Below, piece by piece: positions 53,803 through 55,751 of a DNA stretch of 64,000 nucleotides. This stretch comes from Escherichia coli (GTDB taxonomy: Bacteria > Pseudomonadota > Gammaproteobacteria > Enterobacterales > Enterobacteriaceae), in the NCBI RefSeq assembly GCF_001677475.2, contig NZ_CP015229.1. One strand, given 5' to 3'. The notes below the pieces were generated by a model that saw nothing but the letters and a program-made list of their open reading frames with translations, had not been told where the DNA came from and searched no databases. The stretch's first letter is position 1, and each line of letters begins with the position of its first letter. The position numbers and the translations under genes were made by a program.

Positions 53803-54758
53803 ATGCAACCGGAACTGCTGGCGCTGTGTTTTTCCCTGCCAGAACCCATCCCTGAGCTGACACCTGCTCAACTGCCGGAATGGCTCGAACTTGTCCCTGC
53901 GGGTGAGTTCACCGGCGCGATGGCCGGACGTGGATTAACCGCAATCCGCATGAGGTGGTTGCCCGTTCGTCCGGCATCAAAATTCCGGTGGATATTGAAC
54001 ACGCCACCGAAATTAAAGGCCCGCGTGGTGAAGATGCTCCGGCGTATGGCTGGGTGGAAGAACTGCGGGTGACGGACAGCAGCACCATTGAAGGGCGTGT
54101 TGTCTGGAGCGAGTCCGCCCGCTGGATGCTGAGCGAGCGCCGCTACCGCTATTACAGCCCGGCGTTTTTCTTTGACGCGGAAGGCGTAGTGACGCGCCTG
54201 TCCAGCGTCGGGCTGACCAACAAACCTAACCTGGATTTTCCTGCACTGAATACGGAGAAAAACCTGATGACAGTACCTGTGCAAATCACCGGCCTGCTTG
54301 GGCTGGCTGAATCTGCCACGGTGGACGATACCGTGGCCGCCATTAAACAACTTCAGGAGAACGAACAGGTGGCGCTGAACCGCGCACAGACACCTGATCT
54401 GACGAAGTTTGTGCCGGTGGAAACCCACAATCTGGCCCTGAACCGTGCCGAAACCGCAGAACAACGCCTTCAGCAACTTGAAGAGAAGGAAGCAGAAGCG
54501 CTTGTGGATGCGGCCATCGAAGCCGGAAAAGTGGCCCCGGCAAACCGTGACATGTTCCTTGCCACCTGCCGCACGGAAGAAGGCCGCAAACAGTTTGCGG
54601 AGTACACCAGAGGCGCACAGCCGCTGGTGAACAACGACAAGCCCAGCCAGGGCAAGGATAAACCCGCGCAGACACTGACCGACACCGAACTGGCGATGTG
54701 CCGCAGCATGGGTATTACCGGGGAAGAGTTCCTCGCCGCTAAACCGAAACAGGAGTAA
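53803..54758 (+). pseudogene. head protease/scaffold (Mu I-like) interrupted by a 1-bp frameshift near 53,920
   Basis: Track shows two overlapping ORFs in different frames (53803-54072 and 53955-54758); together they read ...PAGEFTG / RDGRTWIN ... VARSSGIKIPVDIEHATE. Confidence 0.6.
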
Positions 54759-54765
54759 GTAACAC

Positions 54766-55690
54766 ATGTCACAGACTATCAGTTCTGAAATCCTTCATGC
54801 ACTGACCACCTGCCTGAGCGCCGCCTTTACCCGTGGACTGAGTGGTGTCGAACCGCAGTGGAATCGTATTGCTTCTGAGGTGCCGAGTTCGTCCGCCTCC
54901 AACACCTACGGCTGGATGAAAGATTTACCGGACATCAAAGAATGGGTCGGTGAGCGTCAGCTGGCAACGCTGGACGGTTATGGTTACACCATCACCAACA
55001 AACTCTGGGAAAGTTCCATTCGCGTTAAGCGCGAACACATTGAAGATGACCAGATAGGTCAGTACAGCATTACCGCCGAACGCTATGGCCGTATGACTGC
55101 TGTGTTCCCGGACAAGCTGTGTTACGCCCTGTTGTGTGCCGGGTTTAACACCCTGTGCTTTGACGGCCAGAACTTCTTTGATGAAGACCACCCGCTGGGC
55201 GACGGCACCTACAGCAACGTTGTCGGTACACCAGGAACGGACCAGGGCGAACCGTGGTTTCTGATTGATGAGTCGCAGGTGCTGAAACCCATCATCTGGC
55301 AGACGCGACGCGCCTTTAAATTTGAAGCCCTGGACGATCTGAACAGCGAGCACACCTTCAAGAACCACGAGTTCCTGTACGGCGTGGACGGTCGCTGTAA
55401 TGCGGGCTTCGGCTTCTGGCAGACCGCCGTCGGTTCCGTGCAGCACTGACGGTGGAGAACTACAAAAAAGCCAATGAGTTGCTGCGGGGCATGAAGGCAC
55501 CAACGGTGAGCCGCTGGGCATCCGCCCGACCACCCTTGTGGTGGGGCCGAAAAACCGTGCGGACGCGAAGCTCATTATTGACGCCATGCTGGTTAACGGC
55601 GGCGATTCAACATCTGGTACAAGGATGTGGAGATCGTGGACAGCCCGTACATCACACCGCTGGCAATAACCCGTCATCGCGTATCTGTAA
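54766..55690 (+). pseudogene. major head subunit (Mu T-like) interrupted by at least two 1-bp frameshifts near 55,440 and 55,500
   Basis: Track ORF 54766-55449 carries the N-terminal two thirds (SNTYGW ... CNAGFGFWQ); the continuation is found successively in the other two frames. Confidence 0.6.
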
Positions 55691-55751
55691 CCCGCAGTTA
55701 AAAGGCGCTGCGAATGCCCTTTTAACTGCCTTTTAAAAGGCAGAGTCATGA

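Follow-up and report, generated by a model that had tools for sequence, protein, structure and literature searches.

The two head genes of a Mu-like transposable prophage in Escherichia coli, gene I (head protease with an in-frame C-terminal scaffold) and gene T (major head subunit), are interrupted by single-base frameshifts in assembly GCF_001677475.2 (contig NZ_CP015229.1), and comparison of the sequence with its closest relatives makes it highly probable that these breaks are a local consensus error, of sequencing or assembly, in this one assembly and not the marks of a decayed prophage. Of the two explanations put forward in the original prediction, a prophage defective for capsid formation or localised sequencing errors, the second is strongly favoured and the first is not, because the differences are private, almost all of them indels (10:1), include compensating pairs and are clustered in a short patch within an otherwise identical 39 kb.

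The window, by which we mean the whole 64,000-nt stretch of DNA that was analysed, holds the prophage on its plus strand from position 37154, where the left end abuts P1-like DNA (~37153-37157), to position 64000, where the element runs off the window. A repressor gene (37401-37916, minus strand) is followed by transposase A (38292-40457), B (40533-41486) and then the middle and late genes, which include, in order, terminase, portal, F-like, I, T, a small gene, gp36-like, virion morphogenesis, sheath, tube and tape measure. The same order of terminase, portal, F, I, T, head-completion and tail genes is found in phage Mu and Mu-like prophages, and the I (protease with a scaffold nested in frame) and T proteins of phage Mu belong to the same Pfam families, PF10123 and PF10124, as the products in the window. 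Mu-like phages usually have an in-frame scaffold inside the protease gene, and their capsid subunit is the T-type protein (PMC2628397). Genes I and T are unremarkable representatives of the Mu I and Mu T families. They differ from Mu itself in that the DNA identity is too low for a megablast match, the region having matched nothing in the phage collection, and from the genes of every Mu-like relative examined in being interrupted instead of intact.

The genes flanking I and T, all on the plus strand, are intact, as had been expected for the terminase, portal, sheath and tape-measure genes: terminase large subunit (49729-51264), portal (51261-52832) and the Mu F-like gene (52825-53589) on the upstream side, and gp36-like (56060-56497), virion morphogenesis (56494-57039), sheath (57836-59311), tube (59321-59677) and tape measure (60161-62026) on the downstream side. 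Throughout the compared stretch these genes are identical to those of sister assemblies, with no differences in the upstream head genes (49729..53589; 0 substitutions and 0 indels across 47300-53699) and with the downstream genes (56060..62026) identical to the sister locus L010 as far as position 61262, including zero substitutions in 55801-60800.

Gene I (53803..54758, plus strand), delimited by tiling its pieces onto intact orthologues, measures 956 nt in the window versus 957 nt (318 aa) in the sister assemblies. The ORF map and the raw sequence divide it, as first described, into two overlapping ORFs in different frames, 53803..54072 (89 aa) and 53955..54758 (267 aa). Residues 1-38 are read from 53803 (53803-53916) and residues 39-318 one frame over, at 53916-54758, ending in a TAA stop at 54756-58. 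The gene occupies the correct position, between the F-like gene and T, for an ORF of ~318-320 aa, which is split at codon 38 and would be continuous once the missing G is put back. Assignment to the I-like and T-like families was borne out by Pfam matches: the 267-aa piece (53955-54755) matches the Mu-like_Pro profile PF10123 (E = 2.7e-38, model positions 37-329 of 330), which is also present in intact I orthologues, and the first piece of gene T, of 227 aa, matches the Mu-like_gpT profile PF10124 (E = 3.6e-87, model positions 1-218 of 289), the match ending at 218.

Gene T (54766..55669, plus strand), delimited in the same way, measures 904 nt in the window versus 906 nt (301 aa) in the sister assemblies. 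The ORF map agrees with the original prediction that the gene breaks after 227 codons (54766..55449) and continues in the other two frames as shorter ORFs. Residues 1-224 lie at 54766-55437, residues 225-244 at 55437-55496 in the second frame, residues 245-282 at 55496-55609 in the third frame and residues 283-298 at 55609-55656 in the first frame again, and the ancestral TAA stop at 55667-69 is out of frame. A continuous ORF of ~300 aa over the whole PF10124 profile is not found in the window, residues 225-298 being distributed over three frames and the stop being lost.

We located sister loci by exact look-up of the terminase protein of the window, which gave seven loci in other assemblies. 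Gene I is intact at 318 aa in 7 of these 7, and in all six loci that reach past I, T (301 aa) and the downstream gene (103 aa) are intact too; the six (L008-L012 and L014) are 100% identical to one another across I, T and the downstream gene. The longest of the matches detailed here, L010 (GCA_043014985.2), is identical to the window over 18.5 kb (42769-61262) apart from 11 differences, all at 53913-55755, and L012 (GCA_033692315.1) and L014 (GCA_029619415.1) are identical to it over 14.0 kb and 11.5 kb, respectively, apart from the differences catalogued below. A second look-up, via a P1-like protein encoded further to the left, showed that window positions 21838-45266 are 100.0% identical to five further independent assemblies (L025-L029). 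The stretch verified base for base amounts to 39,425 bp (21838-61262), in which the 11 differences are confined to 1,843 bp and the remaining 37.6 kb compared contains zero differences, a distribution with a chance probability of ~5e-13 for all 11 to fall in 1,843 of 39,425 bp.

Relative to the sister assemblies, the window differs at 11 places from 53913 to 55755, 10 of them single-base indels and the other a substitution: one indel in gene I, six indels and the substitution in gene T, two indels in the intergenic spacer and one indel in the next gene. All but one of the 11 fall in a span of 321 bp (55435-55755). The sole difference in gene I is the loss of a G (GGG to GG, 53914..53915, plus strand), 1.5 kb from the main patch, at a site where every relative has GGG. 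The main patch (55435..55760, plus strand), resolved by realignment to L010 into nine single-base indels and one substitution in 321 bp, begins within gene T with the loss of a C at 55436-37 (CCC to CC), of a G at 55496-97 (GGG to GG) and of a C at 55608 (CC to C), the last of which restores the register for T residues 283-298. Towards the 3′ end of T, a C is lost after 55655, a G is gained at 55659, a C is replaced by T at 55661 (the lone substitution) and an A is gained at 55665/66 (GCATAA to GCAATAA), abolishing the TAA stop. The spacer gains a G at 55679 and loses an A after 55683. Finally, an A is gained at 55755-60 (A5 to A6), just outside the interval covered by the original prediction, in codons 3-4 of the small 103-aa gene downstream of T (55748..56060, plus strand; 'hypothetical' or HI1506-related in relatives), shifting the frame of its ATG at 55748; a GTG at 55752 leaves residues 4-103 readable.

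The number of differences depends on how the alignment is made. A simple alignment to relatives gave six window-specific single-base indels, all in coding sequence (deletions at 53914-15, 55436-37, 55496-97 and 55608; insertions at 55665/66 and 55755-60), and a gap-tolerant realignment against the otherwise identical L010 converted eight apparent substitutions at the 3′ end of T into a C deletion, a G insertion, a C>T change, a G insertion and an A deletion. The three 1-bp losses initially reported (53914-15, 55436-37 and 55496-97) were all recovered against four to seven relatives, but three is too low a count given the 10 indels and 1 substitution seen here. The main-patch differences recur against L008-L012 and L014. 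Eight of the 10 indels lie in runs of at least 2 bases, and there are two +1/-1 pairs, 55655/55659 and, in the non-coding spacer, 55679/55683, with members 4-5 bases apart.

These properties are those of an error patch with respect both to privacy, as six otherwise identical sisters are intact and 0 of 40 related loci share the indels, and to spectrum, which is dominated by indels, in short runs, with compensating pairs and clustering. We infer that the pattern originated in base-calling or assembly rather than in mutation. In a short stretch of low quality, chiefly 55435-55760, single bases would have been lost or gained, for the most part within runs of 2-6 identical bases, and one G at 53914-15 would have been miscounted. 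The actual DNA of the isolate would then most likely code for an intact 318-aa I, a 301-aa T and a 103-aa downstream protein, as in the sister isolates, and the prophage would not be head-defective. The +1/-1 pairs 4-5 bases apart point the same way, being typical of base-calling jitter and something for which selection offers no reason.

Two earlier reports document gene-fragmenting indel errors in assemblies as a class of artefact and describe how comparison with close relatives reveals them (PMC12007338, PMC8011154). The present case resembles that class in that the single-base indels are mostly in runs and the ORF pieces tile onto an intact homologue, and differs from it in that such errors are usually spread through a whole long-read assembly, whereas here they are confined to a local patch. 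A general homopolymer problem was rejected, since all 1,926 runs of at least 3 bases outside the patch (171 of at least 5 and 9 of at least 7) agree with other assemblies; with the 37.6 kb around the patch free of error, these runs included, the cause must be local. For so small a patch, with the rest of the assembly perfect, some particular event would have to be responsible: one poor read, for example, a read used to close a gap, or sequence left unpolished.

The main alternative, which we regard as unlikely, is that the indels are genuine recent mutations private to this isolate, leaving a prophage without head protease and major head protein. The protease would be frameshifted at codon 38, with an internal start that could still yield the C-terminal scaffold, and T would be truncated after residue 224, so that the prophage would still transpose and build tails, with no capsids. 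The frame breaks are, after all, present in the sequence, and in four of the six deletions the missing base is a G or C that belonged to a short G/C run. The loss of G or C from such runs is a known signature of error-prone-polymerase frameshifts; this feature counts against the error reading, being also a signature of some real frameshift mutagenesis. Defective prophages are moreover common, and the relatives RM9088 and STEC346 carry occasional pseudogenes elsewhere.

Set against genuine mutation is, above all, the contrast between zero substitutions elsewhere in 39 kb and 10 indels in 1.84 kb. Any hit after the first inactivating one would be neutral, so that later hits should be spread across the prophage, yet nothing is seen elsewhere; a compensating +1/-1 pair lies in non-coding spacer, and none of the indels occurs in any other assembly examined. 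A genuine pseudogene would be expected to carry all kinds of mutation, scattered and shared by descendants, a picture that was not found here. Cryptic prophages with truly frameshifted structural genes would look alike in outcome if the mutations were real, with broken genes among intact neighbours, but real decay leaves scattered substitutions together with indels, whereas here there is one substitution and everything lies in 1.84 kb.

The ratio of 10 indels to 1 substitution is also opposite to the natural spectrum of the family. Among 30 distinct relatives (92-100% identity), I, T and the downstream gene contain 390 substitution columns and no frameshifting indel, and length varies only at the I stop and T start (a 2-nt alternative), by one codon within T and through indels of the spacer. 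The 2-nt alternative concerns the I/T junction (54750-54770), which occurs in two alleles: that of the window, in which I ends with TAA 8 nt before the T start and is 318 aa long, and one 2 nt shorter, in which I is 320 aa long and its stop overlaps the T start codon; these alleles are natural variation, not error. Comparison with intact Mu-like I and T genes, proposed at the outset as a check, returned continuous ORFs of 318-320 aa for I and 300-301 aa for T. The complete RefSeq E. coli relatives, at 92-96.5% identity, each have one 318-320-aa 'phage protease' and one 300-301-aa gpT, and at ≤96.5% identity they show that the genes are normally intact while being too distant to tell error from mutation. 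When the indels of the window were sought in 40 related loci, they were common to none, all of these loci encoding single continuous ORFs.

Genuine decay does occur in this phage family, as isolated events. The chromosomal Mu-like prophages of RM9088 and STEC346 have early-region pseudogenes that are frameshifted or contain an internal stop (L004, 5050-5468 and 10201-10752; L007, 4737-5007), and RM9088 has an IS66 insertion.

Genuine mutation on this pattern needs a local frameshift burst, for instance in one error-prone repair tract. That the indels are real and arose together in such a burst, in a single tract of error-prone repair synthesis of ~0.3-2 kb that put the protease, the major capsid protein and the gene after it out of action at once, we hold to be quite improbable. 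Gene conversion from a diverged copy was rejected, as it would import substitutions.

The lone gene I deletion (53914-15) calls for separate consideration, as it stands 1.5 kb off in perfect sequence, could be a genuine mutation and is, of the 11 differences, the single event most likely to be so. A mixed origin would make this deletion real, inactivating the protease, and the 55435-55760 patch an artefact. It would accord with the 1.5 kb identical to sister assemblies that parts the deletion from the patch and with the position of the deletion in a plain GGG run with no errors adjoining. The deletion is nevertheless as private as the rest: a 35-mer spanning it had 0 matches in viral and metagenome contigs, in which the corresponding intact 36-mer, used as a positive control, had 15 + 6 = 21, and it occurs in 0 of the 40 related loci. 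An extra error near the patch is also more economical than an independent mutation in an otherwise unchanged 39 kb, and we rate the mixed origin marginally lower even than the burst.

Other searches for the variant sequences were likewise negative. Among the indexed gene positions there is no record of the four products that only the frameshifts create (227, 89, 102 and 267 aa), and the variant 38-mer at the end of T is absent from the representative genomes. That the public collections searched lack the variant may be partly explained by an unindexed source. For the region as a whole, the PLSDB plasmids yielded just a 75%-identical Klebsiella match, of no help in a base-level comparison.

The location of the shifts in mononucleotide runs also raises programmed ribosomal frameshifting, or slippage phase variation in the runs, as a means of regulating head-gene expression, a reading to which we attach almost no credence. 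Its hallmarks, a shift site conserved together with a slippery motif or an extended repeat, were not found: 40 of 40 related loci have continuous ORFs, six of them otherwise identical to the window, and nothing is conserved. The runs, of just 2-3 bases, are far too short for a slipped-strand mechanism, and four successive shifts in T, a lost stop and indels in the spacer follow no recoding logic. As for a structural source of local base-calling trouble, a scan of 55400-55760 for hairpins and terminators found nothing above shuffle expectation.

Two further candidates were considered and set aside. A generally garbled stretch was suspected at 53800-54300, where substitutions relative to 93-97% identical relatives looked enriched; these substitutions are third-position, of period 3 and common to the identical sisters, which marks them as allelic differences of natural origin rather than errors. 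That the patch is an unpolished repeat, also present in a second Mu-like prophage, is plausible, given that some genomes hold 2-3 copies, and is unsupported, the sister assemblies crossing I-T unbroken save for one contig that ends at ~53555. In complete E. coli genomes, two to three copies of the I-T region are present in some cases. Sister short-read contigs end inside the prophage at 42397-42769, 45266-45371, 47507, 53555, 58972 and 59379, which suggests that the sister genomes hold a second, partly similar Mu-like prophage.

The element that carries the prophage is itself of interest. Positions 1-37153 of the window are a P1-like (IncY-type) phage-plasmid, in which the Mu-like prophage is inserted in a 188-aa backbone gene (junction ~37153-37157) flanked by a tail-tube-like gene and an SH3-domain (simC-like) gene; plasmid CP099272.1 has this backbone gene uninterrupted. 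At least six other assemblies (L025-L030; 18 recorded contigs) have the same junction, with 100% identity over 14-23 kb; it was not found in PLSDB plasmids, and a text search found no published description of it. The nesting of a Mu-like prophage in P1-like DNA is real, and of greater interest than the frameshifts. At ~130 kb or more the composite probably exceeds the headful capacity of P1, and the phage-plasmid may therefore be locked in as a plasmid.

Two other features of the P1-like part were noted. A ddrB-like gene (12943-18346; 995 aa in relatives) is split into ORFs of 264 aa and 738 aa by an IS21-family element (~13724-16135) encoding an IstA-like protein of 499 aa (14542-16041) and an IstB-like protein of 251 aa (13790-14545), and one short-read contig of a sister isolate seems to stop near 16139, which is what a repeat would produce. 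The tail-fibre region (23021-27341), adjoined by a gene for a 186-aa resolvase/invertase (22467-23027), is inverted relative to L033 at 99.9% identity, which would fit a cin-type invertible C segment that was captured the other way round.

The interruption of I and T is best filed as an assembly-error patch and not as a real biological feature, and its significance is mostly one of quality control: an error patch can be told from true gene decay, with no recourse to reads, by setting the sequence beside independent assemblies nearly identical to it. An annotation made from the sequence at face value would call the prophage capsid-defective and label three genes pseudogenes, probably in error. 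Were the indels genuine, the Mu-like element of this isolate would transpose and make no heads, and the mutation pattern would itself be unusual. A real burst would provide a natural example of clustered indel-only mutation and of a freshly head-defective transposable prophage nested in a P1-like phage-plasmid.
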